Assembly: GCA_963713825.1 (NCBI GenBank)
Contig: CAVQNG010000025.1
Coordinates: 192,001 to 256,000, forward strand
DNA: 64,000 nucleotides
From: an uncultured Acidobacteriota bacterium
GTDB taxonomy: Bacteria > Acidobacteriota > Thermoanaerobaculia > Multivoradales > JAHEKO01
Direction of reading: 5' to 3'
The position numbers were made by a program, and so were the translations under genes. Each line of letters begins with the position of its first letter. Within the stretch, counting starts at the first letter, position 1. The notes under the pieces were generated by a model. It saw nothing but the letters and a program-made list of their open reading frames with translations. It searched no databases and had not been told where the DNA came from. Below, one piece after another: positions 29,521 through 53,589 of the stretch.

Positions 29521-29569
29521 GAGGGGTTTCTGCGCACCAGATAGTCAGGTTTCGTCGTTCGAGATTCCA

Positions 29570-30358: not shown

Positions 30359-30376
30359 GATGACGGGGAGCCGCCG

Positions 30377-35866: not shown

Positions 35867-36068
35867 GTCCTTCCGATCGGTTCGAGAGTCAGCGAGAGGA
35901 ACTCCCCGGGGAGGAGCCCCAGATTCGTGTGCGATGCTCTGCACCTTATAGAATCGCCGCACTCTCGGGCAGGACGGCGAGGCCGAGGGAATTATGGGCC
36001 AGGTGGAAGCGGGCGGCAAGGGAAGCGCAACACTGAGACCAGGGAATCCAAGGGTGTTCAGGAATTCG

Positions 36069-37292
36069 ATGAGGCTCATCTCGCACGTTCGGGTACGACC
36101 GTGGATCGCTCCCTGCCTGCTCGGTCTGGCGTGCCTCTCCTGCTCGGCAACCGACTCGGAGCCACCTGTGGCGGTGTCGAATCCGCTTTTCGTGGAGCCG
36201 GCTTCGCGGGACTTTTCCAAGAACCCGGATCTGCTCGAGAGGATCGTCGAGAGCCCCCACGGCTATCTTCGATTCATCAACATCCAGTTCACGCAGGACG
36301 TGTGTCGACAGTTCGCGGGCAGCCTGTCCCAGTACCCTCCCTTCAACCTGCATGGCGATGCCCACCTGGAGCAGTATGCGGTGACCGACCTGGGCCGTGG
36401 GCTGACGGACTTCGACGACTCGTCCAGTGGGCCGGCGGTTGTGGATCTGGTGAGATTCGGCGTGTCTTTGCGCTTGGCGTTGGCGGCACACGGTTGGACA
36501 GATCGGGCCGAAGAGGTACTGGATGCGTTCTTGTTGGGATATCGGACGGCACTAGCGGATCCGTCGGTGGAGGCCCCAGAACCGGTCGTTGTCGGACGGC
36601 TCCAGGCCGGCTTCGAGTACGATCGTGAAAAGTACTTCGAGTGGGTCGAGGAGATCTCGGATCCAGTTCCCGCGGTGGAACAAGTCGAGCTTCTAGAGGC
36701 CATGCGGCACTACTTCGACAACCTGCGGGCCCAGTATCCGAGCCTGGATGCAGGCTTTCTGAAGGTGGAGCGTGTCGGTTATCTCAAGCTGGGGATCGGC
36801 AGCGCATTGGACACCAAGTACCTCGTCCAGATTCGTGGTGAGAGCGATGCGATCACGGATGACCTGGTTCTCGAGCTCAAGCAGGTTCGCGACTTGGCCG
36901 GTATCGAGTGTGTTGCGGCGGGTCAGGGGTCGGACCCTTACCGGATCCTGGTTGGCCAGTCCATCGCCTATCAGCCCTATTCCATGCTGGGCTACGTCCA
37001 TTTTCGCGACGTATCCTTCTGGGCCCATGCCTGGGTCGACAACTACCGTGAGCTGGACATCGATCAGACGATCGAGACCGTGGAGGAGCTCCTGGAAGTG
37101 GCCTACGACGTGGGGGTCCAGCTGGGACTGGGGCATCCGAACCAGTACGAGGAGCCGCTGGCTCTCCAGTTGCGCCGTGAGCAGGTGCGCCTCTTGGACA
37201 GGGACGAAGCTCAGATCAAGGAAGCGTCCCGGCAGCTTACGACGCAGATCGAGCAAGCCTGGCGCGACTTCTCCTCACGGGCCCAGCAGTAG
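36069..37292 (+). CDS. DUF2252-family kinase-fold protein with lipoprotein signal
   Basis: LLGLACLSC lipobox; SPHGYLR, LHGDAHLEQY, LTDFDDS, GIGSALDTKY, DLVLELKQ. Confidence 0.68.
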   Translation: MRLISHVRVRPWIAPCLLGLACLSCSATDSEPPVAVSNPLFVEPASRDFSKNPDLLERIVESPHGYLRFINIQFTQDVCRQFAGSLSQYPPFNLHGDAHLEQYAVTDLGRGLTDFDDSSSGPAVVDLVRFGVSLRLALAAHGWTDRAEEVLDAFLLGYRTALADPSVEAPEPVVVGRLQAGFEYDREKYFEWVEEISDPVPAVEQVELLEAMRHYFDNLRAQYPSLDAGFLKVERVGYLKLGIGSALDTKYLVQIRGESDAITDDLVLELKQVRDLAGIECVAAGQGSDPYRILVGQSIAYQPYSMLGYVHFRDVSFWAHAWVDNYRELDIDQTIETVEELLEVAYDVGVQLGLGHPNQYEEPLALQLRREQVRLLDRDEAQIKEASRQLTTQIEQAWRDFSSRAQQ

Positions 37293-38853: not shown

Positions 38854-39927
38854 ATGATGCGACGACGAAGGCTTCGAGCCGATTGGGTGGGTGTGATGGC
38901 CTGTGTCACGGCTGCTGCTATCGGCTGTTCGCCCGCTGTCGATGAGCCCAGTGTCGAGGCGGAAGCGGGGGAATTTTACGATCTGACAGGTGACTACCTG
39001 GGACAGGAGCTACCGGGCCAGACTCCCAAGCTCTTCGCACCGGGCATCGTCTCGACCGGACTGTCGGAGCGGGATGTGGCCATCACTCCCGACGGCAACG
39101 AGATCTACTACTCTGGCGTGGTTGGGGCCAATCACAATTTCAGTGCCATCCTCGTCGTGAAACGCGTCGAAGGTCGGTGGTCGAAGCCAGAAGTGGCCCC
39201 CTTTTCAGGCCACTTCATGGACCTCGAGCCGGCGATCTCACCGGACGGGCAGCGGTTCTTCTTCCTCTCGAATCGGCCTCTCCCGGGGTCGTCAGAGCCG
39301 CATGGCAGCGAAGACATTTGGGTCATGGAGCGCACCGACGGGGGCTGGAGTGAGCCATCGAATCTCGGCCCGCCAGTCAATTCGGCAGCCCCTGAGTTCT
39401 TTCCTTCAGTGACCCGGGATGGAACTCTCTATTTCACCCGTCGTGGCGAGGGCCGCAGCGAGACCATCTTCCGATCGCGCTTCGTGGACGGTGCCTATGC
39501 CGAGCCCGAGGAGCTGGGTCCGGAAGTGAACTCGGGACAAACCCAGTTCAACGCCTTCATCGCACCGGATGAGAGCTACTTGCTGGTCTGCGTCTGGGGT
39601 CGTGACGACAGCCTCGGCGGGGTCGATTACTACGTCGTCTTTCGGTCAGCTGACGATGTGTGGTCGGAGCCCATCAATCTGGGCGAAGGGATCAATATGG
39701 CCGAGGGCTCGGAGTGGTCTCCATCGGTGTCACCCGATGGCAGGTACCTCTTCTTCATGTCGTCACGCGCCACGATCCAGAAGGGGCACTCGCCCGATAG
39801 GCTCGACTACGCGGACATGCAGCGTTTGCACGATTTGCCGATGAACGGAAACTCCGATATCTGGTGGGTGGATGCCGAGGTGATCAGCAGACTGAGGCCG
39901 GAAGAGACTGGTGAAGCTGCTCCTTGA
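38854..39927 (+). CDS. PD40/TolB-like beta-propeller lipoprotein
   Basis: AAAIGC lipobox; YLGQELPG.TPKLFAPGIVST; repeated PAISPDG, SVSPDG, WSEP.NLG motifs. Confidence 0.82.
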   Translation: MMRRRRLRADWVGVMACVTAAAIGCSPAVDEPSVEAEAGEFYDLTGDYLGQELPGQTPKLFAPGIVSTGLSERDVAITPDGNEIYYSGVVGANHNFSAILVVKRVEGRWSKPEVAPFSGHFMDLEPAISPDGQRFFFLSNRPLPGSSEPHGSEDIWVMERTDGGWSEPSNLGPPVNSAAPEFFPSVTRDGTLYFTRRGEGRSETIFRSRFVDGAYAEPEELGPEVNSGQTQFNAFIAPDESYLLVCVWGRDDSLGGVDYYVVFRSADDVWSEPINLGEGINMAEGSEWSPSVSPDGRYLFFMSSRATIQKGHSPDRLDYADMQRLHDLPMNGNSDIWWVDAEVISRLRPEETGEAAP

Positions 39928-39939
39928 GGTGAGACGGAC

Positions 39940-42408
39940 ATGATCGGCAACACGATCGCTCATTACCGGATTCTCGAGTTGATCGGGAAGGGAGGAATGG
40001 GAGAGGTCTATCTGGCCGAGGATCTGGAGCTGGGGCGACAGATCGCGTTGAAGATGCTGCCGCCCCAGCTGGTGAACGAGCCTGACCGATTGGAGCGCTT
40101 CCGACGCGAGGCCAAGACTCTGGCCGCCCTCAACCACCCCAACATCGTCACCATCCACTCCGTGGAAACCGTCGATCTCGAAGCTCCAGGACCCAAGCCC
40201 CAGGACCCAGGGCAAGAAGGCCAGGCGCCGCCGGGCTCTTCGCCCCTTCATTTCCTCACCATGGAGCTCGTGGACGGCAGGACACTTGCGGACTCGATTC
40301 CTCCTGGCGGGCTTGCTGCGGAGAGAATCCTCGAACTGAGTGTCCCACTCGCCGATGCCTTGGCCAGGGCGCATGCGACTGGAATCGTCCACCGGGATCT
40401 GAAACCGGGCAACGTCATGGTGACCTCCGATGGTCGAGTCAAGGTCCTCGATTTTGGCTTGGCGAAGCTGCGAGGCGTTTCGTTGGCCGACGGGGAGACC
40501 CAGTTGGCTACAGAGGGGATCACAGGGGAGGGGCGAGTCCTCGGGACTGTTCCTTATATGTCTCCGGAGCAGGTCGTCGGCAGGGGGGTGGATCCGCGAT
40601 CCGACGTCTTCTCTCTGGGTGTGATGCTGTTCGAGATGGCGACTGGCAAGAGACCGTTTCGGGGCGAATCCTCGCCAGATCTGATCTCCTCGATCTTGCG
40701 GGATACGCCCAAGCGCGTCGATCTCCTGAACGAAGACCTGCCGCATCATCTGGCGCGGGTGATCGGACGCTGTCTCGAGAAGGATCCCGAGAGGCGCTAC
40801 CAGTCGGCGATCGACGTGCGCAACGAGCTGTCAGATCTCGCCCGGGAGCTCGATACGAAAGCGGTGCTCGAGGAGCACGCTGTTCCTGTGACGGTCACGG
40901 AACGGCCCTCGATACAGGGCTGGTTGCTGGGAATCGCGGCGATCGTCGCCATGATCCTGGTGGCTTCGGTCGCGGCCTATAAATTGGTCAAAACCCGTCG
41001 TCCCGGTTCGATCGCGAGTCAGACCACCGCGATTCGGTCGCTAGCTGTGCTGCCTTTCGACAATCTGATGAACGATCCGGAGCAGGACTACTTAGTCGAC
41101 GGGATGCACGAGGCTTTGATTACTGATCTGGCGAAGATCTCGGACCTGAAAGTAATCTCCCGAACGTCAGCAATGCGTTACAAGGGGTCGGACAAGACCC
41201 TGCCGGAGATCGCTCGCGAGCTGGGAGTCGAGGCACTGGTCGAAGGCTCGGTCCTGCGGGCCGAGGGCCAGGTGCGCATCACGGCTCAGCTCATCGATGG
41301 CGCCAGCGACGAGCACCTGTGGGCCGAGAGCTACGACCGTGATTTGGCGAACCTCCTCGCTCTTCTGAGCGACGTGGCCCGTGCCATCGCCACGGAGATC
41401 GAGGTCGAGCTGACCCAGGAGCAGGAAAGGCTGCTGACCTCGAAGACGGCGGTGAATCCAGAGGTGCAAGAGCTCTACCTGAAAGGCCGCTCGCTGCTGA
41501 GTCGGTTCGAGATGAAGCACATCCCCGAGGCGAGGCGGTTCTTCGAGCAGGTGCTGGCGATTGACCCCGATTTTGCTCCTGCGATCTCAGGTCTGGCGAG
41601 CTGCGATTTCTTGCTTGGATTCTTCGGGAGACTGCCTTTCGAGGCAGCGATGCCGGCAGCCGAAAAGGGGTTCCGGAGGGCTCTGGAGCTCGATCCCGAC
41701 CTGAGCCAAGCCCGGTCACTTCTCGGCTGGGTGAAGATGTTCTACCACTGGGACATCGCAGGAGGCGTCGAAGAGTTCGATCGGGCCCTGAGAATCGACC
41801 CCAATGATCCGATCGCCAGACACGGGATGGCCGACTACTACATGATTCTCGGAGATCGCGAGCGGTCCGTGGAGGAGGTGATGGCGGCTCGCAGGGTCGA
41901 CCCACTTTCTCGCGTTACGGTGATTCCAGTGATCGGTCACTTGATGATGGCTCGTCGCTACGAAGAGGCGCTCGACGAGACCCGCCAATGGATGGAGCTC
42001 TTCCCCGACGACAAAGGGGTGATTCTCACTTGGCTACCGATGATTCTCAAGCTGCAAGGTCGTTATGAAGAAGCCCTCGAGGAGGAGCGCAGCCTCTACC
42101 CTCCCGACTCCGGTTACCTCAAGGCTGTGGAACAGGGGTTCGAGGATGGGGGACCACGAGGCGCTGATCGGGCTGCGGGAGACTATCTGGCCAGCCGGTC
42201 ATCGCCATCGCCGATTCTGGTCGCGAGGACCTACGCTGCTGCTGGGGAGGTCGATCTGGCGTTCGAATGGCTAGATCGGGCATACGCGGTACGGGAACCT
42301 CAGCTTCTGCACGTAGTCGCCTATCCGCAATTCGACGCGATTCGCTCCGACCCGCGGTACGAGGAGCTGTTACGACGGATCGGCATCTTCCAAGAGCCAG
42401 AGGCATGA
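39940..42408 (+). CDS. Hanks-type Ser/Thr kinase with TM helix and TolB_N-TPR sensor region
   Basis: IGKGGMGEVY, IALKML, HRDLKPGN, DFGLAK, YMSPE; TM WLLGIAAIVAMILVASVAAY; SLAVLPFDNL; TPRs. Confidence 0.92.
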   Translation: MIGNTIAHYRILELIGKGGMGEVYLAEDLELGRQIALKMLPPQLVNEPDRLERFRREAKTLAALNHPNIVTIHSVETVDLEAPGPKPQDPGQEGQAPPGSSPLHFLTMELVDGRTLADSIPPGGLAAERILELSVPLADALARAHATGIVHRDLKPGNVMVTSDGRVKVLDFGLAKLRGVSLADGETQLATEGITGEGRVLGTVPYMSPEQVVGRGVDPRSDVFSLGVMLFEMATGKRPFRGESSPDLISSILRDTPKRVDLLNEDLPHHLARVIGRCLEKDPERRYQSAIDVRNELSDLARELDTKAVLEEHAVPVTVTERPSIQGWLLGIAAIVAMILVASVAAYKLVKTRRPGSIASQTTAIRSLAVLPFDNLMNDPEQDYLVDGMHEALITDLAKISDLKVISRTSAMRYKGSDKTLPEIARELGVEALVEGSVLRAEGQVRITAQLIDGASDEHLWAESYDRDLANLLALLSDVARAIATEIEVELTQEQERLLTSKTAVNPEVQELYLKGRSLLSRFEMKHIPEARRFFEQVLAIDPDFAPAISGLASCDFLLGFFGRLPFEAAMPAAEKGFRRALELDPDLSQARSLLGWVKMFYHWDIAGGVEEFDRALRIDPNDPIARHGMADYYMILGDRERSVEEVMAARRVDPLSRVTVIPVIGHLMMARRYEEALDETRQWMELFPDDKGVILTWLPMILKLQGRYEEALEEERSLYPPDSGYLKAVEQGFEDGGPRGADRAAGDYLASRSSPSPILVARTYAAAGEVDLAFEWLDRAYAVREPQLLHVVAYPQFDAIRSDPRYEELLRRIGIFQEPEA
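40186..40227 (+). repeat. Degenerate in-frame heptamer tandem repeat (CCAGGNC-like) inside the kinase gene
   Basis: CCAGGAC CCAAGCC CCAGGAC CCAGGGC AAGAAGG CCAGGCG. Confidence 0.5.
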
Positions 42409-43328
42409 GTCACGAGATGAAGATCGGAGTCGTACTACTCGCCGTTCTGGTGGGATCGGTCGGCCTTCAGGGAGCCGGCGCGCAAACCGAATTGCAGGAG
42501 CTTCAGCTCGCACCAAGGGATCTCTCACAGCTTTCCGACCAGGAGATCGAGACCATCCTTCTCGAAGGGCGGGTTGTCGAGAGGGAGAATCTCGACGTCG
42601 GGGTGACCTTGCCGGAGCGTCTTTGGCTCGAGTACGAAGGCTACCGGATCAGCGCTGCTTTCAAGCATCTCGATTTCGAGCGCAAAGGGCTGACCCACTT
42701 CGAGAAGGCACCGCCCCAGCTCAACTTCAAGGACAGCTTTCGATACGAGCGGGCGGCGTACCTGTTGGACCGCCTTCTTGGTCTGCAGATGGTCCCGGTA
42801 ACGGTACTGCGGAACGTAAAGGCTCATAAAGGAGCCGTCGTGGCCTGGGTCGAGGACGCCATTACCGAGCAGGAGCGATTGCGTCTCAAGCTGGCGCCCG
42901 AGGACACCCGGCTTCTCATTCGGCAACGAGCGGCGATGCGGTTGTTCGACGCCCTGGTCTACAACATCGACAACAACCTCGGCAATCAGCTGTGGACGCG
43001 GCCGGATTGGCGCCTCCATCTAATCGACCATTCGCGCTCCTTTCGCCAACAGAGCAAGCTTCCCGAGAGCTTCGCGAACCGCCCGGTGAGCCTTGGCCCA
43101 GAGCTCTACGATGTCCTCAGGTCTCTCGAGGGGCCTCAGATCGAGGCGGCTCTCGGTGAGGTTCTGAGTCCGGGAGAGATCAAGACGCTGGTGGCGCGCC
43201 TCGAGCTGATTCTGGAGAAGATCGCGCACGATCGCCGAGACTATGGCGATCCGTTCGTGTTTCTGGGCAAAGGAGGAGCCTGGTGGGTGGCTTCCCGACC
43301 TATTCCGACCCGACTTGGTCTATATTGA
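42405..43328 (+). CDS. Secreted atypical kinase, PI4K-II/Fam20-like fold (paralog B)
   Basis: ATGA overlap with the Hanks kinase; signal peptide MKIGVVLLAVLVGSVGLQGAGA; AAFK, ERAAYLLDRLLGLQMVP, FDALVYNIDNNLGN, LIDHSRSF. Confidence 0.75.
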   Translation: MSHEMKIGVVLLAVLVGSVGLQGAGAQTELQELQLAPRDLSQLSDQEIETILLEGRVVERENLDVGVTLPERLWLEYEGYRISAAFKHLDFERKGLTHFEKAPPQLNFKDSFRYERAAYLLDRLLGLQMVPVTVLRNVKAHKGAVVAWVEDAITEQERLRLKLAPEDTRLLIRQRAAMRLFDALVYNIDNNLGNQLWTRPDWRLHLIDHSRSFRQQSKLPESFANRPVSLGPELYDVLRSLEGPQIEAALGEVLSPGEIKTLVARLELILEKIAHDRRDYGDPFVFLGKGGAWWVASRPIPTRLGLY

Positions 43329-43349
43329 GCAGACCATAGGAGGGTTTCG

Positions 43350-46226
43350 GTGACCGGGGAGGTACCCGCGGGGCGGGGCGGAGGGGCTGCAGAAGCCGGA
43401 TGGAGGCGATTTCTCAGGCGCCTGGGTGTGGATTTGCGCCCGGGTGAAGGCTCTCCCGCCGCTCTCCTCTTCGCATCACTATTCCTCCTGCTGACCTTCC
43501 AGATTGCCACCAAGACGATCCGGCAATCGACGTTTATCGATGCTCTGGGCGCCGCCCGGCTGCCGCTGGTCTACCTACTGGTAGCGCTCGTCTCCTATCC
43601 GGTCCTACGTCTCTACAATCGATTCGTCGATCGCTATCGCATCGACCAGCTGTTCGTCGCCTCCTGCCTTGGAATTGCCGGTGGCCTGGTCGTCTTCTGG
43701 GTCCTGATGCGCTACTCCTGGACCTGGGTGCCGGTCGTCTTCTACGTCGGATCCTCGATCGTCTACGGCATGCTGGCAAGTCAGTTCTGGCTGCTCGCCA
43801 CCCACCTCTTCGATCCGCGCCAGGCCAAGCGGCTTTTCGGTTTCATTGGTGCCGGTGCCTTGCTGGGTGGCGTTCTCGGTGGGCAGGTGGCACGCCTGGC
43901 TGGAAAGCTGGTGGGGACGAGCTCGGTTCTGCTGGTGGCTGCAGTCCTGCTGGTGGCCGTGGCGCTGCTCATGATGCGGGCGCGCTCTTCGGAGTCCATC
44001 GAGCTCAAGGCAGAGGAGTCCAAGTCATCCCGAGGCAAGTTCGAAAAGGCCAAGGGGGGATTCGAGGTCCTGAGACAGTCCCGCCCACTGCAGACAATTG
44101 CCGCGGTGGTGATCCTGACGATCATGGTGGCGCAAGTCGTAGACCTCCAGTTCAATTGGGCTGTGGAGCAAAGCACCACCACCTTGGACCAGAGGACCGC
44201 CTTCTACGGCAACTTCTTCAGCGTCATGGGCATCGCCGCCTTCGTGTTCCAGTTAGCTTTCACCTCCCGGATCCACCGTCGGTTGGGCATCTCCTTCGCG
44301 CTACGGGTCCTGCCGGTAACGATGGCCATCGGCACCGTGGCTCTCTTTGTGGCGGCTGGCTTCGTCCCGGAGATGTTGGTGGCGGCGGCACTCATCCTGA
44401 AAGTGGGTGAGAGCGGCCTGCGGTACTCCCTGGACCAGTCGACACGAGAGCTCCTCTTTCTGCCCGTGCCATCAAGGCTGCGGGTCAAGGCCAAGGCCTT
44501 TATCGACGTCTTCATTCAACGGGGAGCGAAGGGGCTCTCGGCGCTCCTCTTGCTGCCGGTGACATTCGGGCTGTTCACCCCAGTCCAGGCCGGTTGGATA
44601 TCTCTCGTTCTCATCGCCATCTGGTTCGGTGTGACGGCGATTGCCTCGCGTGAGTACGTGCGGGCGTTCCGAGTCGGCCTCAAGAAGCGGACGGTAGACG
44701 CTTCCGTCGCGGTGGACCTGTCGGATGTGACTACCCTGGAGCTCTTATTGGAATCCCTTGGCAGCTCCGACAGGAGGCAGGTCCTTCACTGTCTGGACAT
44801 TCTGGTGGCCAATGGGCGCGGTGACCTGGTACCGCCACTGTTGCTGTACCACGACGAGCCCGAGGTGCGATTGCGGACGCTGGGCATCCTGGCCGAGCTC
44901 GGGCGCGTCGATGTCGCTCCTTTGATCGAGAGGCGATTGGGAGACACCGACCCCGAGGTGCGCGCCGAAGCCATCAGGGTGCTGGCGAGCCTCCAGGGCA
45001 AGGACGTCTGCGAGTTGATGCTCCCGAAACTGGAGGAGGGAGACCCGGGAGTGCGCGCCGCAGCCGTCGCCTGCCTGGCGAACTATGGCGACGAGTCGAT
45101 GACCGCAGATGCCACACGTGTGCTGCGAGGTCTCCTGGCGGAAGCCGACCCCAGACTGCGCATCGAGGCGGTCAAAGCCATCGGCGCTGTGCACGAGCCG
45201 CTCTTCCAGGAGCGCTTGATCCACTCGCTCTACGATCCCGACGTGGGGGTCGTAAAGGAGGCTGTCGCAGCGACACGCAGGCGAGTCGCCAGGGACGGCT
45301 TCAACCCACTCTACGTTTCAACTCTGATCGCGCTGCTGCAGAATCGTCGGGTCAGACACGAGACTCGGGAAGCGCTGGTGGCCTTTGGTGAGGCGACAAT
45401 TCCGATCCTGGTCCACTTCATGAATGATCCCGATGAGCCTTTGTGGGTGAAGCGGGCCTTGCCCAAGGCCCTCGCACAGATCGGCACTCTGGCCGCGGCC
45501 CAGGCGCTGCTGGACGGGTTGAAGCATGGTAGCGACAGCTTTCTGAGGCGAAAGCAGGTCGAAGCCCTCAACTGGATGCTCGATCACGGCCATCGCCATG
45601 CGCTGGATCGGTCCGCGGTACGACAGCAGATCACCGAAGAGGCAAGGCGATTCTTGCGCCGCCTGGCAGCGCTGCGAGGCTTGGGGTTGCAATCGAAGGG
45701 GGATCTGTCCGGTGCGGTCATCGTATGGAGTGAGGAGCGGGTCCCGACGCTTCTGGATCGATTGCTGGCCGAACGAGCGGCCAGCAATGTCAAGAACCTG
45801 TTCGGTCTCCTGGCGCTGTTGTATCCGCCGGAGCACATCTGGGCTGCCCATCGGAGTCTCACGAGTGGCGACCGACTTCACAGGTCTCGCGCACTGGAGT
45901 TCTTGGACAATACCCTGGATGGTGAGCTTAGCCGCGCGGTCTTTGCCGTCATCGACGATTGTCCCCTGAGTGAGAAGCTGACACGGGCCGCCAAGCTGTA
46001 CGACATACGGGTCCGATCCAGGGTCGAGACGCTGCGGAGCCTACTCGAGGCCTATCTGGGAGGCGAGCCCGACTCGGGTGGAATCGCGGCCGCCGCGCTC
46101 TATGAGATTCGAGTCGAGAGCATCTCCGGCCTGGAGGCCGAGATCGAGCGACTCGTAGCCGGTGCCGAGGACCCGTTTGTCGGAGAGACGGCCACATGGG
46201 TGGCCGAGCGGGTCGCTCGAGTCTAG
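43350..46226 (+). CDS. NTT/TLC (Npt1/Npt2) family nucleotide translocase fused to HEAT repeats, copy 1
   Basis: About 12 hydrophobic helices; SQFWLLATHLFDPRQAKRLFGFIGAG and LRYSLDQSTRELLFLPVP..LRVKAKAFIDVFIQRGAK NTT signatures; HEAT repeats DPEVRAEAIRVL, DPGVRAAAVACL, DPRLRIEAVKAIG. Confidence 0.85.
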   Translation: MTGEVPAGRGGGAAEAGWRRFLRRLGVDLRPGEGSPAALLFASLFLLLTFQIATKTIRQSTFIDALGAARLPLVYLLVALVSYPVLRLYNRFVDRYRIDQLFVASCLGIAGGLVVFWVLMRYSWTWVPVVFYVGSSIVYGMLASQFWLLATHLFDPRQAKRLFGFIGAGALLGGVLGGQVARLAGKLVGTSSVLLVAAVLLVAVALLMMRARSSESIELKAEESKSSRGKFEKAKGGFEVLRQSRPLQTIAAVVILTIMVAQVVDLQFNWAVEQSTTTLDQRTAFYGNFFSVMGIAAFVFQLAFTSRIHRRLGISFALRVLPVTMAIGTVALFVAAGFVPEMLVAAALILKVGESGLRYSLDQSTRELLFLPVPSRLRVKAKAFIDVFIQRGAKGLSALLLLPVTFGLFTPVQAGWISLVLIAIWFGVTAIASREYVRAFRVGLKKRTVDASVAVDLSDVTTLELLLESLGSSDRRQVLHCLDILVANGRGDLVPPLLLYHDEPEVRLRTLGILAELGRVDVAPLIERRLGDTDPEVRAEAIRVLASLQGKDVCELMLPKLEEGDPGVRAAAVACLANYGDESMTADATRVLRGLLAEADPRLRIEAVKAIGAVHEPLFQERLIHSLYDPDVGVVKEAVAATRRRVARDGFNPLYVSTLIALLQNRRVRHETREALVAFGEATIPILVHFMNDPDEPLWVKRALPKALAQIGTLAAAQALLDGLKHGSDSFLRRKQVEALNWMLDHGHRHALDRSAVRQQITEEARRFLRRLAALRGLGLQSKGDLSGAVIVWSEERVPTLLDRLLAERAASNVKNLFGLLALLYPPEHIWAAHRSLTSGDRLHRSRALEFLDNTLDGELSRAVFAVIDDCPLSEKLTRAAKLYDIRVRSRVETLRSLLEAYLGGEPDSGGIAAAALYEIRVESISGLEAEIERLVAGAEDPFVGETATWVAERVARV

Positions 46227-46280
46227 ATTCGAGCCAGGGATGACCTATAATCCTAGGGCCATTCTGCGCAGGAGGAACGG

Positions 46281-49160
46281 ATGAGTCCAGACGTGCCTGG
46301 AACAGCTGAGGCTACACAAGAGACGTCTCTCTGGCGACGTCTGACCAGCCGTCTGGGGATCGACATGCGGCAGGGCGAAGGTTGGCCCGCTGTCCTGCTT
46401 TTCATCACCTTCTTTCTCTTCATCACCTTTCAATACGCCACCAAGAGCGTTCGGCAGTCGTCCTATATCAAGGGGTTGGGGGCGGCCAACTTGCCCTGGG
46501 TCTATCTGGCGGTGGCGATCTGCTCGTATCCGTTGCTTCGACTGTACGGGCGGTTTGCTGATCGGATCAAGCGCCACCATTTGATGGCGGCCACTTGCAC
46601 CATCATTGCCCTCAGCATGGTGGTCTTTTGGTGGCTGTTCCAGTTCAACTGGGCATGGATTCCATTTGCTCTCTACGTCTGGATCTCGATCGCCTATGTC
46701 ATGAACGTCAGCCAGTTCTGGTCGTTCTCGAACCATGTCTTCGATCCCCGTCAGGCCAAGCGCCTGTTCGGCTTCATCGGAGCTGGGGGACTGCTGGGCG
46801 GCATTGCGGGCGGTCAGGTGGCCCGCCTGGTCAGCTATCTGGTCGACACCCGGACCACGTTTCTGGTGGCGGCCGTCATTCTCATGCTGGCTGTTGCGAT
46901 CATCTTCCTGATTCAGAAGCGAAGCCCTGCAGAATCGGATGCGGTGGCTGGCGCTGCGGGCCTGGCCAAGCTCGACAAGGCCAAAGGCGGCTTCGAGATC
47001 ATCAAGGGCTCGCGTCAACTGCAGGTCATCGCGGCAATCATGGTGCTGAGTGTCGTGGTAGCTCAGATCGTGGATTTGCAGTTCAACTGGGCAGTCGAGA
47101 GTGCAACGACCGACCTGGAGAACGCCACGCGGTTCTTCGGCAACTTCTACAGCATCATGGGGATCGCAGCCTTTCTGTTCCAGCTGGCCTTTACGGCTCG
47201 CATTCACCGGGTCCTGGGTGTCGGGGTAGCGATGAGGATTCTGCCAGTCACCTTGGCTTTCGGCACGGCGGCGCTTTTCGTTTCGGCAGGGTTCTTCCCG
47301 GCGCTCCTTCTGGTGACGGCTCTGTTCCTGAAGGTCGGTGAGAACGGAGTGCGCTATTCGCTCGAGCAGGCGACCCGCGAGCTTCTGTTCCTGCCTGTGC
47401 CCTCGCAAGCCCGCGTCAAGGCGAAGGCCTTTATCGACGTCTTCGTGCAACGCGGCGCCAAAGGCATGGCGGCCCTCCTCCTTCTTCCTGTGACATTCGG
47501 CTTGATCACCGCAGTTCAGGCTGGCTGGATCTCATTGGTTCTCATCGCGCTCTGGTTGGGCGTAACCTTCATTGCCTACAAGGAGTACGTGCACTCGTTT
47601 CGGCGCGTTCTCAAGACGCGAAGTGTCGATGCGGAGATTCCTATCGACATCACCGACGTCACGACCCTGGAGATGCTCGTGCAGGCTCTGGGGAGCTCGG
47701 ATGCTCGCCAGGTGATGCAGAGCCTCGACATCCTGGCCTCCAACGGTCGAGAGAACCTCGTCTCTCCGCTGCTGCTCTACCATGATGATGCCGAGGTGAG
47801 GCAGCACACCCTCGAAATCCTGGCCAAGTCGGGGCGAGTCGATGCCTTGCCCCTGATCGAGGGGCGCTTGGCGGATCAGAACCCGGAAGTCAGGGCCGCG
47901 GCGATCGAGACGATGGCCAAGCTGCATGGCGAAGATGCGTGCGAGCTGATGCTGCCACGGCTCAGAGAGAGTGACGCTGGGGTGCGGGCTGCGGCAGTGG
48001 CCTGCCTGGCCAACTATGGAACAGAGTCGATGCTGGGCGAGGCCACACGCTCGCTGGGTGATCTCTTGTCCGATGCCGATCCCGAGATCCGAGCCGAGGC
48101 AGCGAAGGCCCTCGGAGCCATTCACGAGCCCCGATTTCAGGAGCTTCTCATTCGCTTGCTCTACGATCGAGAGCCGCTGATCGCTCGCGAAGCGATCTCG
48201 GCCATCCGTCGCAGGGTGGCGCGAGACGGCTACAACCCGATCTACGTGCCGACCCTGGTGTCGCTGTTGAACAGCCGTCGGGTCAAGCACGACGCGAGGG
48301 AGGCTCTCGTTGCTTTCGGCGAGCCGGCGATTCCGGCTCTGGCCCACTTCATGGGGGATGGCGATGAGCAGTTGTGGGTGCGACGGGCTCTGCCGATGAC
48401 CATCGCCAAGATCGGCACGCTGGCCGCCGCCGAGAAGCTCCTGGATCAGCTGACCCAATCGGCAGATTCCTTTCAGCGCCGCAAATTGATCGAGTCGGTC
48501 GGAGCCCTACCTGATGACATTCGGCATACGGCCGACTCGAAGACCATCGATCAGCAGATTCACTTCGAGGCCGGGCGCTATCTTCAGGCTCTCGCCGATC
48601 TGCGAGCCCTAGGGGCAATCGAGAAGAGCAGGCTCGAGGGTGGCTGTGTCACCTGGCGTGAGGATGCTCAGGAGCCCAACCTGGTAGAGCGGCTTCTCGG
48701 GGAGCGCGCCGAAGAGCACCTGCGCAACATCTTCGGCCTGATGGCGGCTCTCCTTCCACCCCGCGACGTCTGGGCTGCCCATCGCAGCTTGACGGGTGGC
48801 GCCTCCGGTTTGCGAAGCCACGCACTGGAGTACCTGGACAACACGCTGTCGGGCGACTTGCGGCGAAGCGTGTTCGCGGTCATCGATGATCAACCTCTCG
48901 ACGAGAAGCTCAGCGCCGCTGCGAAGCACTTTGGCGTGACGAGCACGACAAAGGTCGCGGTATTGGACAGGATGCTGGTCGAACCAGAGGATGGAGACTC
49001 CGAGGAGTACCATCTCACGCTGGCGGCTCTCTATGCCGTGCACGAAGGAAGAATCGCCGAGCTATACGATCGAGTTCGGTCGCTGGTGCAGAACGCCACG
49101 GACCCGTTCGTCGGTGAAACGGCCCGTTGGGTCGCGGTGCGAGAGGGAATCTCCACGTAG
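46281..49160 (+). CDS. NTT/TLC family nucleotide translocase fused to HEAT repeats, copy 2 (tandem paralog)
   Basis: AGGAGG RBS; SQFWSFSNHVFDPRQAKRLFGFIGAG, VRYSLEQATRELLFLPVP..ARVKAKAFIDVFVQRGAK; HEAT repeats; colinear with copy 1. Confidence 0.85.
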   Translation: MSPDVPGTAEATQETSLWRRLTSRLGIDMRQGEGWPAVLLFITFFLFITFQYATKSVRQSSYIKGLGAANLPWVYLAVAICSYPLLRLYGRFADRIKRHHLMAATCTIIALSMVVFWWLFQFNWAWIPFALYVWISIAYVMNVSQFWSFSNHVFDPRQAKRLFGFIGAGGLLGGIAGGQVARLVSYLVDTRTTFLVAAVILMLAVAIIFLIQKRSPAESDAVAGAAGLAKLDKAKGGFEIIKGSRQLQVIAAIMVLSVVVAQIVDLQFNWAVESATTDLENATRFFGNFYSIMGIAAFLFQLAFTARIHRVLGVGVAMRILPVTLAFGTAALFVSAGFFPALLLVTALFLKVGENGVRYSLEQATRELLFLPVPSQARVKAKAFIDVFVQRGAKGMAALLLLPVTFGLITAVQAGWISLVLIALWLGVTFIAYKEYVHSFRRVLKTRSVDAEIPIDITDVTTLEMLVQALGSSDARQVMQSLDILASNGRENLVSPLLLYHDDAEVRQHTLEILAKSGRVDALPLIEGRLADQNPEVRAAAIETMAKLHGEDACELMLPRLRESDAGVRAAAVACLANYGTESMLGEATRSLGDLLSDADPEIRAEAAKALGAIHEPRFQELLIRLLYDREPLIAREAISAIRRRVARDGYNPIYVPTLVSLLNSRRVKHDAREALVAFGEPAIPALAHFMGDGDEQLWVRRALPMTIAKIGTLAAAEKLLDQLTQSADSFQRRKLIESVGALPDDIRHTADSKTIDQQIHFEAGRYLQALADLRALGAIEKSRLEGGCVTWREDAQEPNLVERLLGERAEEHLRNIFGLMAALLPPRDVWAAHRSLTGGASGLRSHALEYLDNTLSGDLRRSVFAVIDDQPLDEKLSAAAKHFGVTSTTKVAVLDRMLVEPEDGDSEEYHLTLAALYAVHEGRIAELYDRVRSLVQNATDPFVGETARWVAVREGIST

Positions 49161-49181
49161 AAAGTTGGAGGAGGGAAACCT

Positions 49182-49595
49182 GTGTCTGAGTTAGCCAGGA
49201 TCGAAACGGTCGTCTTCCTGCAGAGCGTCGACGTCTTTTCCTATTGCAAGGCGGAGGAAGTGCTCAGGATTGCCGCTATTGCTCAAGAGAGGGCGGTGGC
49301 CGCAGGCGAGAAGATCTACAGCGCGAACGAGCCAGCCGAGGCAATGTTCTGCGTGGTTCGGGGCATGGTCAAGGTCGAGCCCGGCAACGGCGAGACCAAG
49401 ACAGTCGGCCCTCTGGCGACGTTCGGGGGGGTCGACATTCTTCGCAGTCGACTGCGGACGGCGAGCGCGACAGCCGAAACCGATGTCCTGCTGTTGGCCA
49501 TCGAGAGCGACGATCTGTTCGACCTGCTGTCGAACAACATCGAGATCGTCAAGGCTCTCTTCCGTCATCTCATCGAGCGGTTTCAGTACGAGTAG
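49182..49595 (+). CDS. Stand-alone cyclic nucleotide-binding (Crp-like) domain protein
   Basis: FLQSVDVFS, AGEKIYSANEPAEAMFCVVRGMV, FGGVDIL...RTASATAETD. Confidence 0.82.
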   Translation: MSELARIETVVFLQSVDVFSYCKAEEVLRIAAIAQERAVAAGEKIYSANEPAEAMFCVVRGMVKVEPGNGETKTVGPLATFGGVDILRSRLRTASATAETDVLLLAIESDDLFDLLSNNIEIVKALFRHLIERFQYE

Positions 49596-49617
49596 TTCGA
49601 AGTGCAAGGAGGCCTGA

Positions 49618-50556
49618 ATGTTCGTATCGAGTAGAAGAACGGGGCGAGGGTTGTGGATGTCTGGTTGCAAAGCCCTGTTGGTATTTGCTTGTCTGGCCTC
49701 TTGGAGTGGCCATGCATTGGAGGCTGCAGACGCGAAGACGCCTGACCGCGTTTTTCATGGTCCTGATGGCACGCCTCTGCCTTTCCAGACGGTCTCCGAG
49801 GTCGAAGAGTTCCTGCGCACGGCGAGGGTTATCAACGTCGAAGCGATTCCCGAGGGAGTCACCAAGCCGAAGAAGATTCTCCTGGAAGCGAGCGGTGTCC
49901 AGGCGCATGCGAAGTTCGGTTACAACGATTTCAAGGGCCAGGGGGAGAAGCTCGCCGACGGCACCACGGAGATGTACTTCCAAGACAGCTACAAGGCGGA
50001 CATAGCAGCCTTCGTCCTCAGTCGGCTGTTGGGCATGGAGATGGTACCGCCAGCGGTTACCCGACAGGTGGAGGGCCAGGACGGCATCGTTCAGATTTGG
50101 ATCGAGGGGCTGACCAGCTACGAGAGCTGGCTAGAGGACGGCAATTCCGGCCAGCCAGCCTCACTGTACTTCCAGAGACAGGTCAAGGACATGAAGACGT
50201 TCGACCTGCTGATTCGGAATATCGACCGCCATAGTCGCAACATCAACTGGGACAGCGACTGGAATCTCTGGCTCATCGACCACACGCGCAGCCTGGCGAA
50301 GGACGCCACCCTGCGCAAGCCTGATTCCTTCAAGGGCTGCTCCAGGGAGCTCTTTCGGGCGATTCGAGACCTGAACAAGAGCACAGTGGAGACGGCTCTC
50401 AAGCCCTATCTGGGTAACTTCGAGATCAAGGCCCTCCTCAAGCGACGGGACAAGCTCGTCAAGTTGGTCGAAGGCCAGATCAAGAAGCAGGGTGAAGACA
50501 CAATCCTGTTCAACTACGGCGATGCTCCTCCAGGCCTAGTTATCAGCTACGACTAG
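49618..50556 (+). CDS. Secreted atypical kinase, PI4K-II/Fam20-like fold (paralog C)
   Basis: AAGGAGG RBS; signal peptide ending ALEA; DSYKADIAAFVLSRLLGMEMVPP, GIVQIWIE, FDLLIRNIDRHSRNI, WLIDHTRSL. Confidence 0.75.
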   Translation: MFVSSRRTGRGLWMSGCKALLVFACLASWSGHALEAADAKTPDRVFHGPDGTPLPFQTVSEVEEFLRTARVINVEAIPEGVTKPKKILLEASGVQAHAKFGYNDFKGQGEKLADGTTEMYFQDSYKADIAAFVLSRLLGMEMVPPAVTRQVEGQDGIVQIWIEGLTSYESWLEDGNSGQPASLYFQRQVKDMKTFDLLIRNIDRHSRNINWDSDWNLWLIDHTRSLAKDATLRKPDSFKGCSRELFRAIRDLNKSTVETALKPYLGNFEIKALLKRRDKLVKLVEGQIKKQGEDTILFNYGDAPPGLVISYD

Positions 50557-50666
50557 AGTGCCCGGCTGCAATCGGTCGGCAGCGAAGCCGGCGGCGTTGG
50601 ATCTTGCGCTCCGCCGGCTCGGACCACTCATGGGCTGGGTGGGCCTGAAAAACCCAGGAGAGAAGT

Positions 50667-51686
50667 TTGCGTAGTATGGGAATGGACACCTGCCAGACAG
50701 GGCTTCCCTTGGGGAAGCCGAAGGCTTCCGAGCCTCAGAGTGGTGGAGCTGGTGCCGCCAGCGCTCCCAAGTTGCTGCAGAGAAGCGTCGGCCTTGGATG
50801 TCTGATCGTTTCCCTGTTGTTGTTCGAGCCTCCGGAGGCATCCGCACAGCCGGGTCCTTCTGGAACGTTCGACACCCGAACCTGGCTGGGCCCTGATGGG
50901 AAGACTCTCCCGATTACCGCCGAGAACGAGCTCCTGCGGTTTCTCGACAGCGCTTCGGAGACCTCCGTCAAGATCCTCTCGCGAGGCATCACTGGGGCCA
51001 AGAGACTGACGCTGGAGCAGGGAGGGGTCGAGGCTCGAGTCGTCTTCCATGACATCAACCGGTCCGAGCAGAGGCCGAAACGGCTGCCGAACAAACGGAC
51101 CGTGATGTATCTGCGCGACAGCTACAAGAGTCAGATCGCCGCCTATCGACTCAGCAGGCTGCTGGGTATGAAGAACGTGCCGCCGACCGTGGTGCGGGTC
51201 TCGGGAGCGGCGACGGGCTCGGCTCAGCTTTGGATCGAAGATGCGATGACCGAGGACATCCGACTGGAAAAGGGCGTCGAGCTGCGGGACCATAACCTGC
51301 GGAATCAGAACCTGGTCGACATGCGGGTCTTCGACAACCTCATCAACAACATCGACCGTAACCAGGGCAACATGTTGGTGGATTCCTTCGGTACCCTTTG
51401 GTTGATCGACCACACCCGATCGTTCGGGCAGGACAACGGACTGCCGCTGCCCGAGATGATCACGCGGTGCTCGAATCGGATGCTGCAGGCCATTCGTTCG
51501 CTGGACGAGCGGACCTTGCGAGAGGACCTCGGGCCCTACCTCACCGGAGTCGAGATCGGGGCGCTGTGGCAGCGCCGAGAGAGGGTGTTGGAGCGCATCG
51601 AGGAGCTCATCGGCGGCAAGGGCAGGGACCAGGTTCTTTTCGACTACGGCGATCCCGATCCTGGTGTCATCATTCTGGAACAGTGA
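50667..51686 (+). CDS. Secreted or membrane-anchored atypical kinase, PI4K-II/Fam20-like fold (paralog D)
   Basis: Hydrophobic VGLGCLIVSLLLF...ASA segment; DSYKSQIAAYRLSRLLGMKNVPP, GSAQLWIE, FDNLINNIDRNQGNML, WLIDHTRSF; start uncertain. Confidence 0.75.
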   Translation: MRSMGMDTCQTGLPLGKPKASEPQSGGAGAASAPKLLQRSVGLGCLIVSLLLFEPPEASAQPGPSGTFDTRTWLGPDGKTLPITAENELLRFLDSASETSVKILSRGITGAKRLTLEQGGVEARVVFHDINRSEQRPKRLPNKRTVMYLRDSYKSQIAAYRLSRLLGMKNVPPTVVRVSGAATGSAQLWIEDAMTEDIRLEKGVELRDHNLRNQNLVDMRVFDNLINNIDRNQGNMLVDSFGTLWLIDHTRSFGQDNGLPLPEMITRCSNRMLQAIRSLDERTLREDLGPYLTGVEIGALWQRRERVLERIEELIGGKGRDQVLFDYGDPDPGVIILEQ

Positions 51687-51780: not shown

Positions 51781-53589
51781 ATGACGCAGACCGCCTTCCC
51801 CGATCTGAGAGCCTTCCTCGAGCACCTGAAGCGAGATGGAGATCTCGCCGTAGTAGAGGCTCCCGTCGATCCTCTTCTCGAAGTGGCAGAGATCCACCGC
51901 AGGGTGATTGCCGCTGATGGTCCAGCCCTACTGTTCACCAACCCCGTAGACTCGGCCTATCCGCTGGCGACGAATCTCTTCGGATCCACCCGCCGAGTGG
52001 AAGCCGCTTTCGGGCGCCAGCCGTTTCGCCTCATCGAGCGTCTCGTTGCGCTCTCCCAGGAGCTGTTGCCGCCGACGCTGTCAGGCCTCTGGGGTGCGAA
52101 GGACGTGGCTTGGGAAGCGCTGCGAATCGGTACCAAGAGAACCGGCCAGGGACCCGTCATGCAAAGGGTGATCCGAGACCCGGATCTGACCCGATTGCCG
52201 GTGATCACGTCCTGGCCCGATGATGGAGGGCCCTTTGTGACCCTGCCATTGGTGTTTACCGAGCACCCAGACGGTGCCGGTCACAATCTGGGGATGTACC
52301 GGATGCAGGTCCACGACCGGCGCTCGACCGGGATGCACTGGCAGATTGGCAAAGGGGGCGGCTTCCACTATTCAGTAGCCGAGGCTCTCCAGCAGCCTCT
52401 CCCGGCAACGGTCTACCTCGGAGGACCACCGGCCTTGATTCTCGCCGCGGTGGCACCGCTGCCAGAGAACGTTCCCGAGCTCATGCTGGCCTCGCTGATC
52501 GCCGGAGAGAAATTGCGCGTTTGTGCGGCACCCGAGGGGGGCAGCCTGCTGGCTGATTGTGAGTTCGCCCTGAGGGGTAGGGTGCCTGCCGACCTGCGCC
52601 GCACAGAGGGCCCGTTCGGTGACCACTATGGTTACTATTCTCTCGCCCACGACTACCCGGTATTCGAAGTCGATTGGATCGCTTGTCGTAAGGATGCGAT
52701 CTATCCCGCGACGGTGGTGGGCAAGCCCCGGCAGGAGGATTTCTTCATCGGGGATCTACTGCAGGAGTTGCTGGCGCCCCTGTTTCCCTTGGTGATGCCG
52801 GGAGTGATCGATCTCTGGTCCTATGGAGAGACCGGCTACCACTCGTTGGCAGCAGCCGTCGTCAAAGAGCGCTACAAGCGTGAGGCCATGGCCAGCGCAT
52901 TTCGGATCCTGGGGGAGAGCCAGCTCTCACTCACGAAGTTTCTGCTGATCACCGACCAGAGAGTGGATCTGAAGGATTTCAAGGCTACTCTCGAGCACGT
53001 CCTGGAGCGCACACGACCCGAGACCGATCTCTTTGTTCTCAGCAATCTCTCGATGGACACGCTGGATTACTCCGGGCCCCGGGTCAACGAAGGCTCGAAG
53101 GGAGTCTTGCTGGGGCTGGGAGAGCCGGTGCGACAACTGCCAGGGGAGTTTCAGGCCGACGTCTTGCCGTCCGGAGTGACCGATGTCCAGGTCTTCTGTC
53201 TGGGCTGTCTGGTCGTCGGCGGTCCTCCGCATGCCGACGAGCCCAAGGCGGGTCAGCGTCTGGCGGCCGAGTCGGTGTTTCGCGATTGGCCCTTGCTCGT
53301 CTTGACGGACGAGCCGTCCCGAGCGGCTGCCAGTGCGATGAACTTCCTGTGGACGACGTTTACCCGTTTCGAGCCGGCCGCCGATATCCATGCCGCCGCC
53401 AGCCGGGTGGAGCGAAACCACGTAACCTACGACCCGCCCATCCTGATCGATGCCCGGCGCAAGGCGGGTTTTCCTGAGGAGCTCTTCTGTTCGCCCGAGA
53501 TCGCCGACAGGGTGACTCGGAGATGGCAGGAGTACTTTCCGCAGGGCAGTATCGAGATGGGTGACTCCGACCGCGGCCACCTGGACTAG
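51781..53589 (+). CDS. ubiD: UbiD-family prFMN-dependent decarboxylase (long form, MqnL-like)
   Basis: GPALLF.N, NLGMYRMQ, GMHWQIGKGG, EGPFGDHYGYY, TVVGKPRQED, DTLDY. Confidence 0.88.
   Translation: MTQTAFPDLRAFLEHLKRDGDLAVVEAPVDPLLEVAEIHRRVIAADGPALLFTNPVDSAYPLATNLFGSTRRVEAAFGRQPFRLIERLVALSQELLPPTLSGLWGAKDVAWEALRIGTKRTGQGPVMQRVIRDPDLTRLPVITSWPDDGGPFVTLPLVFTEHPDGAGHNLGMYRMQVHDRRSTGMHWQIGKGGGFHYSVAEALQQPLPATVYLGGPPALILAAVAPLPENVPELMLASLIAGEKLRVCAAPEGGSLLADCEFALRGRVPADLRRTEGPFGDHYGYYSLAHDYPVFEVDWIACRKDAIYPATVVGKPRQEDFFIGDLLQELLAPLFPLVMPGVIDLWSYGETGYHSLAAAVVKERYKREAMASAFRILGESQLSLTKFLLITDQRVDLKDFKATLEHVLERTRPETDLFVLSNLSMDTLDYSGPRVNEGSKGVLLGLGEPVRQLPGEFQADVLPSGVTDVQVFCLGCLVVGGPPHADEPKAGQRLAAESVFRDWPLLVLTDEPSRAAASAMNFLWTTFTRFEPAADIHAAASRVERNHVTYDPPILIDARRKAGFPEELFCSPEIADRVTRRWQEYFPQGSIEMGDSDRGHLD

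Follow-up and report, generated by a model that had tools for sequence, protein, structure and literature searches.

The run of eight genes at positions 38854–51686 of the window, a 64,000-nt stretch of DNA from an uncultured Acidobacteriota bacterium (C25:192001–256000 of a 5.42-Mb assembly in 38 contigs), encodes two tandem NTT-HEAT carriers, a cyclic nucleotide monophosphate (cNMP)-binding protein, and small kinase-like proteins with signal-peptide-like N-termini. The locus was interpreted as one form of a conserved bacterial module, in which an NTT/TLC carrier of the inner membrane is combined with exported enzymes of the Fam20 fold and the carrier would feed ATP to the periplasm. The probability of this reading as a whole was put at slightly below one half (about 0.48). 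The module itself is well supported, and ATP export is plausible and can reasonably be inferred. The original prediction for this DNA had proposed a periplasmic phosphorylation system made up of the whole run. Its module of carriers and exported kinase-fold enzymes held, whereas the PD40 protein and the Hanks-type kinase encoded at the head of the run were not retained as general parts.

In the proposed mechanism, the carriers would exchange cytoplasmic ATP for periplasmic ADP, perhaps together with phosphate, and the HEAT tail and the neighbouring cNMP-binding protein would be located on the cytoplasmic side. The delivered ATP would fuel the exported kinases, which may phosphorylate targets in the envelope; proteins are the likelier targets, and glycans or lipids are possible. 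The HEAT/cNMP part would tie the ATP supply to a cytoplasmic second messenger, and, in forms with a phosphatase, the extent of phosphorylation outside would vary with this supply. A broader version is put forward tentatively and is more doubtful. It would hold that in many Gram-negative bacteria an NTT gated by cNMP or by a phospho-switch meters periplasmic ATP, that Fam20-like kinases and a PPP phosphatase write and erase envelope phosphate, that the ATP supply acts as an inside-out signal, and that the family is the prokaryotic root of the animal secretory-pathway kinases.

The periplasm is treated as ATP-free in textbooks, and known envelope modifications are accordingly taken to use lipid-linked or other donors. 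If the proposed mechanism were true, the orphan NTT-HEAT family would gain a testable function, ATP-driven phosphorylation would occur outside the bacterial cytoplasm, a new kind of inside-out signalling would exist, and the Fam20 secretory kinases would originate in bacteria. A 2020 review describes the route of ATP to the periplasm as unknown because no translocase is known in free-living Gram-negative bacteria, with E. coli lacking one.

Gene run and exported Fam20-like kinases

All eight genes were located on the + strand and formed one tight, co-directional run in the open reading frame (ORF) listing and the family scans, as had been described. The genes of the run and a fourth kinase paralogue, kinA, are as follows (HMM, hidden Markov model; aa, amino acids).

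38854–39927, + strand: PD40 (WD40-like beta-propeller) protein, first of the run (PF07676, 3.5e-20)
39940–42408, + strand: Hanks-type Ser/Thr receptor kinase (Pkinase, 3.1e-42; TPR families)
42405–43328, + strand: kinB, predicted exported Fam20/PI4K-like kinase paralogue (family HMM, 2e-88; TIGR03843, 45 bits)
43350–46226, + strand: NTT-HEAT1 (TLC, 58.0 bits, cut-off 21; HEAT_2, 1.9e-28; MFS_1, 41 bits)
46281–49160, + strand: NTT-HEAT2, tandem paralogue (TLC, 47.7 bits; HEAT_2, 7.8e-30)
49182–49595, + strand: stand-alone cNMP-binding protein, 137 aa (PF00027, 4.8e-15)
49618–50556, + strand: kinC, predicted exported Fam20/PI4K-like kinase paralogue (family HMM, 1.4e-113)
50667–51686, + strand: kinD, predicted exported Fam20-like kinase, start codon uncertain (PF06702, Fam20C, 27.4 bits, cut-off 26.8)
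28636–29520, + strand: kinA, fourth paralogue (PF00454, PI3_PI4_kinase, 33.7 bits, cut-off 27.1; family HMM, 1.4e-94)

The gaps between successive genes of the run were 12, −4, 21, 54, 21, 22, and 110 nt. The ATGA overlap noted earlier was found, with the TGA stop of the Hanks kinase gene sharing bases with the ATG of kinB. The promoter and terminator scan performed no better than on shuffled sequences, and 9 terminator-like sites were found within the run against 9.3 expected from the shuffles. The kinA gene was located 9 kb upstream of the run, beyond the coordinates of the original prediction. The start of kinD is uncertain, as the first in-frame start codon puts about 40 residues ahead of the hydrophobic segment; this corrects the earlier annotation.

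By sequence comparison, kinB, kinC, and kinD are paralogues, with identities of 41% between kinC and kinD and 34% between kinB and kinD. The homology of the small kinases to Fam20 is clear from profile and fold comparisons, whereas their membership of the Pfam family PF06702 is borderline. The match of kinD to this family extended over just 49 residues, kinC scored 16 bits, and kinB gave no match. For PF00454, kinA was above the cut-off, kinD scored 17.9 bits, and kinB and kinC gave no match. The best NCBIfam match of kinB, kinC, and kinD was TIGR03843 (SCO1664), an actinobacterial PI3/PI4-kinase-like family with no assigned function. The scores were 45, 50.5, and 65.4 bits, respectively, against a cut-off of 172.4, and the three proteins are therefore not SCO1664 members. 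Unlike the window kinases, distant actinobacterial relatives retrieved with the kinase profile (L155–L160) had no signal peptide by the heuristic described below and no TLC neighbour.

A profile of 32 members of the kinase family (alignment A1) was searched against the PDB and matched Fam20A (2.6e-14), Fam20C (3.9e-10), a Fam20B-type xylosylkinase (2.5e-7), C. elegans Fam20 (5.1e-7), and type II PI4-kinase (0.06). The AlphaFold2 model of kinD had a mean predicted local distance difference test (pLDDT) score of 81.7, with residues 1–68 disordered and values mostly above 90 over residues 71–330. When this model was compared with the PDB by using Foldseek, the best matches were Fam20C and Fam20A (E ~2e-10), followed by type II PI4-kinases (PI4KII). 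At least 20 top matches were all chains of Fam20A, Fam20C, Fam20B-type, or ceFam20 proteins, with E values from 2e-10 to 9e-9, and the TM values of 0.53–0.56 were normalised to a query that includes the 68 disordered residues.

The catalytic residues were highly conserved in the family. The catalytic-loop Asp was retained in 226 of 233 domains, the Asn in 224, and the DFG-like Asp in 231. The corresponding residues Asp230, Asn235, and Asp248 (kinD numbering) were invariant in A1 and aligned with the DRH and DN(A) motifs of Fam20A. The proposal that the small proteins are kinase-like was thus borne out by the HMM and Foldseek checks, with a fold of the Fam20/PI4K type and retained catalytic residues. 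The family comprised 7041 clusters at 50% identity with E ≤ 1e-3, and 3227 with E ≤ 1e-10.

The N-termini of the A1 members were short; basic residues at the start were followed by a hydrophobic stretch and, at the end, an Ala-x-Ala-like motif. Signal peptides were scored with a home-made heuristic, not SignalP, which looked for an uncharged hydrophobic N-terminal segment followed by a small-x-small motif. A signal-peptide-like N-terminus was found in 105 of 120 database relatives and in 1 of 120 internal control segments. Among ORF-derived proteins, such a segment was found in 56 of 74 stand-alone and 29 of 39 fused forms, and in the latter it lay ahead of a phosphatase domain. In the window, the N-terminus of kinB was MSHEMKIGVVLLAVLVGSVGLQGAGAQ, kinC had a signal-peptide-like segment at residues 19–28 followed by small-x-small, kinD had a hydrophobic segment at residues 43–52 followed by ASA-Q, and kinA also had a signal-peptide-like segment. 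The claim that the kinases carry signal peptides agreed with these N-termini, and export of the kinase-fold enzymes, as predicted from them, is well supported.

The bacterial proteins share with the animal Fam20 kinases (the Golgi casein kinase Fam20C, the pseudokinase Fam20A, and the xylosylkinase Fam20B) a common fold, sequence homology, an N-terminal export signal, and the catalytic Asp/Asn/Asp residues. Both would act outside the cytosol and need ATP in a compartment that makes none, which on the bacterial side is a prediction. In animals, lumenal ATP for the Fam20 kinases is supplied by carriers such as AXER/SLC35B1. The sequence identity to animal Fam20 is about 18%; the bacterial form is shorter (about 270 residues), lacks the animal insertions, and mostly has His in place of the strand-3 Lys, and its carrier would be of the NTT/TLC family whereas the animal carrier is of the SLC35 family. 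In a literature search that left most subscription papers outside, neither exported Fam20-like kinases in bacteria nor a connection between them and NTT were found to have been described. A Fam20 review and a Fam20 evolution paper restricted to animal genomes mentioned no bacterial homologues, and in the review the word "bacteria" occurred once, in the reference list.

Carrier–kinase linkage in other genomes

In order to describe the phyletic distribution, 401 genomes drawn evenly across the phylum were searched with the TLC part of NTT-HEAT1 and with the kinase profile (E ≤ 1e-10). TLC was found in 183 genomes and the kinase in 102; 101 genomes contained both, 1 the kinase only, 82 the NTT only, and 217 neither. 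The TLC tally includes the unpublished genome G049, without which the NTT-only count changes by one. A naive Fisher test gave p = 2e-42 for the co-occurrence, a value that ignores the kinship of the genomes and therefore exaggerates the association. In the only kinase-positive genome without a carrier, G369, which is 92% complete in 380 contigs, TLC was not found at E 1e-3 with this query.

The linkage was also found at the level of gene neighbourhoods. For other genera with a row among 150 listed NTT-HEAT matches, the best-ranked locus of each was taken with up to 20 kb of sequence, giving 78 loci, many of them cut by contig ends. A kinase ORF was found in 22 of these and was located within 2 kb of the carrier in 20; nine copies in a 5.4-Mb genome would predict about 3%. 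Starting instead from the kinase profile with one genome per species, 26 of 71 kinase-seeded loci contained a TLC-type ORF, always within 612 nt of the kinase ORF. These loci belonged to Acidobacteriota, Myxococcota, Desulfobacterota, and Gammaproteobacteria, by record title. In Desulfobacterota and Gammaproteobacteria, the carrier was mostly a plain TLC protein without HEAT repeats, and the linkage of the kinase therefore concerns the TLC domain rather than the HEAT tail.

A replicate was made with 151 genomes of the gammaproteobacterial family of G401 (Steroidobacteraceae by the title of L141). The kinase was present in 34 of them, nearly always as a single frame of 600–690 aa. A TLC homologue was located within 1.5 kb in 22 of the 34 kinase-positive genomes and at about 8 kb in 6, with none among the matches listed in the other 6. 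The Pfam TLC model was rejected as too insensitive for this family, as it found 39 of 151 genomes and missed the TLC gene of G401 itself. It was replaced by the TLC protein of L141 as a query, which matched 122 of 151; the unpublished genome G522 was counted only in these two TLC tallies. The L141 query was so broad that nesting was near-empty of information (34 of 34 against a base rate of 81%), and only the adjacency was used. Co-localisation in other genomes had been set beforehand as the test by which the system could fail, and its outcome was favourable (22/78, 26/71, 101/102, and 28/34 loci or genomes).

Two arrangements were observed among these loci. The order of a tandem NTT-HEAT pair, a cNMP gene, and kinases was kept in L095, L096, and L097, and also in L090 and L092, down to about 51% identity to kinD. 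One of these metagenome-assembled genomes (MAGs) is titled Polyangiaceae, and the gene order is therefore old or transferred. A row of five stand-alone exported kinase paralogues, each 273–275 aa long, was found in a further genus of the phylum (L040:13298–17760), 1.8 kb from an NTT-HEAT gene.

The genome from which the window was taken contained nine kinase-like ORFs: kinA–kinD in the window, one on C1, and four metallophosphoesterase–kinase fusions, of which two were on C3 and one each on C26 and C27. Apart from the two NTT-HEAT genes, a third TLC gene was found on C3, plain and 435 aa long, and 0 of 14 control genomes gave TLC matches. Three of the nine kinase-like ORFs were located within 22 kb of the NTT pair (binomial p ~5.5e-6).

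It is extremely improbable that the kinases and transporters are neighbours by chance or shared ancestry, with no functional link. The two do also occur apart, and related genomes inflate the counts, as such a view would have it. However, the adjacency recurs in four phyla and in co-directional, divergent, and convergent gene orders, the carrier accompanies the kinase in all kinase-positive genomes of the phylum sample except one, and the clustering is significant within the source genome alone. The kinase–transporter linkage is not due to chance.

In the long forms of the family, the kinase domain was located at the C-terminus of a 560–900-aa protein, with a phosphatase domain in the N-terminal half. 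This half matched the Shewanella cold-active protein-tyrosine phosphatase (PDB code 2zbm/1v73) at 1.4e-35, RLPH2 (PDB code 5vjv) at 2.7e-4, and Pfam Metallophos. Many relatives, as well as four genes of the source genome, have such a Shewanella-like PPP domain fused ahead of the kinase; unlike the known phosphatases, it is joined to a Fam20-like kinase and stands behind a signal-peptide-like N-terminus. A phosphatase domain was found in 24 of the 78 NTT-HEAT loci, including 17 of the 22 with a kinase. Among the kinase-seeded loci, a TLC gene was adjacent in 20 of 24 with a phosphatase domain compared with 6 of 47 without. Two of the four exceptions, L101 and L106, still had the cNMP gene; L106 is a 3-kb contig, and the kinase gene of L101 starts about 1.3 kb from the contig end. 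No phosphatase was encoded within the window cluster. Since one exported chain carries both the kinase and a domain of protein-phosphatase type, the fusion points to reversible phosphorylation in the compartment reached. An exported phosphatase near NTT-HEAT homologues had been named in advance as a supportive sign, and one of PPP type, fused to the kinase, was found in many relatives.

The fused domain also bears on the class of substrate. By analogy with Fam20B xylosylkinase or type II PI4-kinase, the exported enzymes could be kinases of glycans or lipids and modify exopolysaccharide, lipopolysaccharide, or a membrane lipid outside the cytoplasm, with ATP still supplied by the carrier. The profile match to the Fam20B-type xylosylkinase, the fold match to PI4KII, and the score of kinA above the PI3_PI4_kinase cut-off are in line with this, and Zhang et al. 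(2018) report that sponge and hydra each have one Fam20 protein, which is a glycan kinase. The fusion partner, however, is a domain of protein-phosphatase type, and no glycosyltransferase or lipid-synthesis gene recurred among the neighbours within 6 kb in the 78 loci. Glycan or lipid kinases are considered very unlikely on this evidence.

Three of the phosphatase–kinase fusions of the source genome were near-identical (G000:C3:989693–991618, C26:4204–6129, and C27:4351–6135; 641, 641, and 594 aa, respectively). With two of the copies on short contigs, they could represent a repeat, a recent duplication, or a mobile stretch. The three ORFs neighbouring the C3 copy had no Pfam match. A further phosphatase–kinase fusion gene was located at G000:C3:1827089–1829083.

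Substrate and direction of the carriers

NTT-HEAT1 and NTT-HEAT2 are TLC(NTT)-HEAT fusions of 958 and 959 aa, respectively, and were 58% identical over 956 residues. The TLC-type membrane domain of NTT-HEAT1 covered approximately residues 1–440 and was followed by C-terminal HEAT repeats. Both proteins exceeded the curated cut-off of PF03219 (TLC), and, together with the HEAT_2 and PF00027 matches given above, this confirmed the proposed NTT-HEAT–cNMP identity. Residues 1–466 of NTT-HEAT1 matched the structure of "ADP,ATP carrier protein 1" (PDB code 9j3n) at 1.4e-8. The alignment extended over about 390 residues and kept charged motifs, for example AKR and the (V)K(A/G)K(A)xIDV stretch.

A crude hydropathy scan gave 11 segments for NTT-HEAT1 and 8 for NTT-HEAT2, where about twelve helices with both ends in the cytoplasm are expected for an NTT. 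A cytoplasmic position of the carrier tail is suggested by the Lys/Arg-rich central loop (10 in 40 residues) and by the cyclic nucleotide-binding domain (cNBD) that is fused C-terminally in many homologues. The cNMP-binding gene begins 21 nt after NTT-HEAT2, and its product has no hydrophobic N-terminus. A homologue was fused to the NTT-HEAT gene or located directly after it in 54 of the 78 loci, and the protein is a probable cytoplasmic regulator of the carriers.

NTT-HEAT proteins have been described before. In Major, Embley & Williams 2017 (PMC5381601), NTT-HEAT proteins form one clade within the NTT family, and NTT-HEAT and NTT-HEAT-cNBD forms, with the cNBD fused or encoded a few nucleotides downstream, are reported from free-living bacteria, with function not known. 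The arrangement is the same as in the window. The words "kinase" and "periplasm" are absent from the main text, and neither the link to exported kinases and phosphatases nor the tandem carriers are described there. The ATP/ADP exchangers of Chlamydiae, Rickettsiales, and plastids (PamNTT1, PDB code 9j3n) belong to the same Pfam family, and their counter-exchange allows either direction in principle. The characterised members import ATP into an energy-dependent cell or organelle and, unlike the window proteins, lack HEAT repeats, a cNBD, and exported kinase neighbours.

The cytoplasmic side of the loci was examined by clustering the ORFs within 6 kb of the carriers in the 78 loci. The commonest neighbours were the kinase group (18 loci after overlap filtering), PAS histidine kinases (15), Hanks kinases (14), STAS proteins (5), and FHA-GAF-PP2C proteins (5). 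From the PAS, STAS, and FHA-GAF-PP2C counts, cytoplasmic signalling inputs are recurrent at NTT-HEAT loci, and the carriers appear to sit between such inputs and, in part of the family, exported enzymes. In the loci with a PAS histidine kinase (15 of 78; L012–L089), this gene came after the cNMP gene.

These neighbours also suit a different view, in which the TLC-like proteins are not nucleotide carriers and instead serve as MFS-type transporters or as transceptor scaffolds whose HEAT tail recruits signalling proteins, and the kinase-fold proteins use another donor or are pseudokinases or binders. The membrane domain matches MFS_1 as well and scores far under the NCBIfam NTT cut-off, the strand-3 Lys is mostly His, and Fam20A itself is a pseudokinase. 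The long alignment to a solved ADP,ATP carrier with its charged motifs, and the placement of NTT-HEAT inside the NTT family by Major et al. (2017, PMC5381601), stand against a non-nucleotide carrier. A role in binding only does not predict Asp, Asn, and Asp to be kept in at least 96% of domains. This view is judged unlikely.

Quite unlikely, in turn, is a carrier that works inward like the characterised NTTs and takes up nucleotides (ATP, ADP, NAD, or others), with exported phosphatase and kinase-fold proteins that serve salvage by processing or binding extracellular nucleotides or organic phosphate. Nucleotide hydrolysis by metallophosphoesterases of the periplasm is well known. The hydrolysis of periplasmic ATP followed by nucleoside uptake is described in the 2020 review, and PamNTT1 prefers ATP import (PMC1951785). 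The fused phosphoesterase, however, matches PPP-family protein-tyrosine phosphatases and not 5'-nucleotidases, and a kinase that retains its catalytic residues lacks a phosphate donor on the outer side if no ATP is supplied there. A cytoplasmic cNMP sensor suits the gating of outflow as well as uptake. By record titles and run labels, the hosts are free-living sediment and soil bacteria, and external ATP is scarce in such habitats. On the side of outward supply, a passage of ATP through an NTT to a host has been raised as speculation by Graf et al. 2021.

Several observations weigh against the supply of periplasmic ATP to exported kinases by these carriers. At the position of the strand-3 Lys in the FKP motif of Fam20, 137 of the 233 domains had His, 45 had Arg, and 33 had Lys. 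Among the window kinases, only kinB has the Lys; kinD has His (His128), kinA has Arg, and kinC has Gly, with a Lys two positions earlier. Since this Lys is mostly replaced, nucleotide binding would be atypical, or lost in some members. The carriers scored 51.5 and 41.1 bits against the TIGR00769 cut-off of 387.2 for characterised NTP/NDP exchangers and appear to be distant relatives only of these; the TLC match is weak and MFS_1 matches in the same region, and the carriers may transport something other than a nucleotide. PamNTT1 is functional in one orientation only (PMC1951785), and, given its preference for import, outward supply would need different kinetics in the NTT-HEAT clade.

The linkage and export data contain further points on this side. 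The kinase was absent from 82 of 183 NTT-positive genomes of the phylum and from 56 of the 78 NTT-HEAT loci; 65 of the corresponding 78 genomes were kinase-positive, and in 43 of those the best NTT locus, the only one considered, had no kinase. In the source genome, five of the nine kinase-like ORFs, including all four fusions, were on other contigs, where they had no transporter as a neighbour and no TLC gene was present within 8 kb; kinA was about 14 kb upstream of the NTT pair. The export calls come from the home-made heuristic. Finally, periplasmic ATP could be lost through porins or by hydrolysis.

PD40 protein, Hanks kinases, and surroundings of the run

The PD40 protein and the Hanks kinase had been proposed as parts of the system. 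The N-terminus of the PD40 protein ends in ...AAIGC, which is lipobox-like when read by eye. A PD40 homologue was found in 0 of 78 NTT-HEAT loci and in 4 of 71 kinase-seeded loci; at least two of these four (L130 and L131) came from MAGs that also hold the closely matching L090 and L092. The Hanks kinase had one hydrophobic segment (residues 328–346), followed by a weak TolB_N-like match and TPR repeats; these two parts are predicted to lie outside the cytoplasm, and the kinase domain within it. Of the 78 NTT-HEAT loci, 8 contained a Hanks kinase domain, and the source genome encodes 95 Hanks kinases, with about 30% of random 20-kb stretches holding one. On these counts, both were rejected as general parts. 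The PD40 protein is incidental, and the Hanks kinase is at most a lineage-specific addition. In four related loci (L090, L092, L095, and L097), a Hanks TolB_N-TPR ORF directly preceded the carriers, and the receptor may therefore belong to the module in this sub-lineage, though not generally.

Hanks-TPR receptor kinases also adjoined three kinase loci of the source genome: before kinB, in the kinA cluster, and after a C3 fusion gene. This adjacency may be chance, as the genome has 95 such kinases. The kinA cluster (window 27030–34828) encodes a TPR/CarboxypepD_reg protein, kinA, a class I methyltransferase, and a 1483-aa Hanks-TolB_N-TPR kinase.

Near-identical DNA was found in sediment and salt-marsh metagenome runs from 14 studies, and two RNA-library runs covered small parts of the run. 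A 273-nt RNA-library contig matched kinB with 0 differences. A second contig of 941 nt covered the end of NTT-HEAT2, the cNMP gene, and the start of kinC with 22 differences, and is therefore from a relative. The contigs give a weak hint of expression only, carry-over of DNA is possible, and the stretches that they leave uncovered are uninformative.

Between the kinA cluster and the run (window 34862–37292), a DUF2252 ORF (35994–37292, + strand, 3.4e-18) and a 452-aa ORF (34862–36220, − strand, weak GT2 match) were found. They overlap by about 230 nt, and the gene calls are therefore unsettled. The next gene after the run, identified in the Pfam and NCBIfam scans, is

51781–53589: UbiD-family decarboxylase

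and looks unrelated to the run. It scored 467 bits against TIGR03701 (menaquinone, futalosine-pathway decarboxylase), just below the cut-off of 495.9, and has a C-terminal extension of about 160 residues past the Pfam domains.

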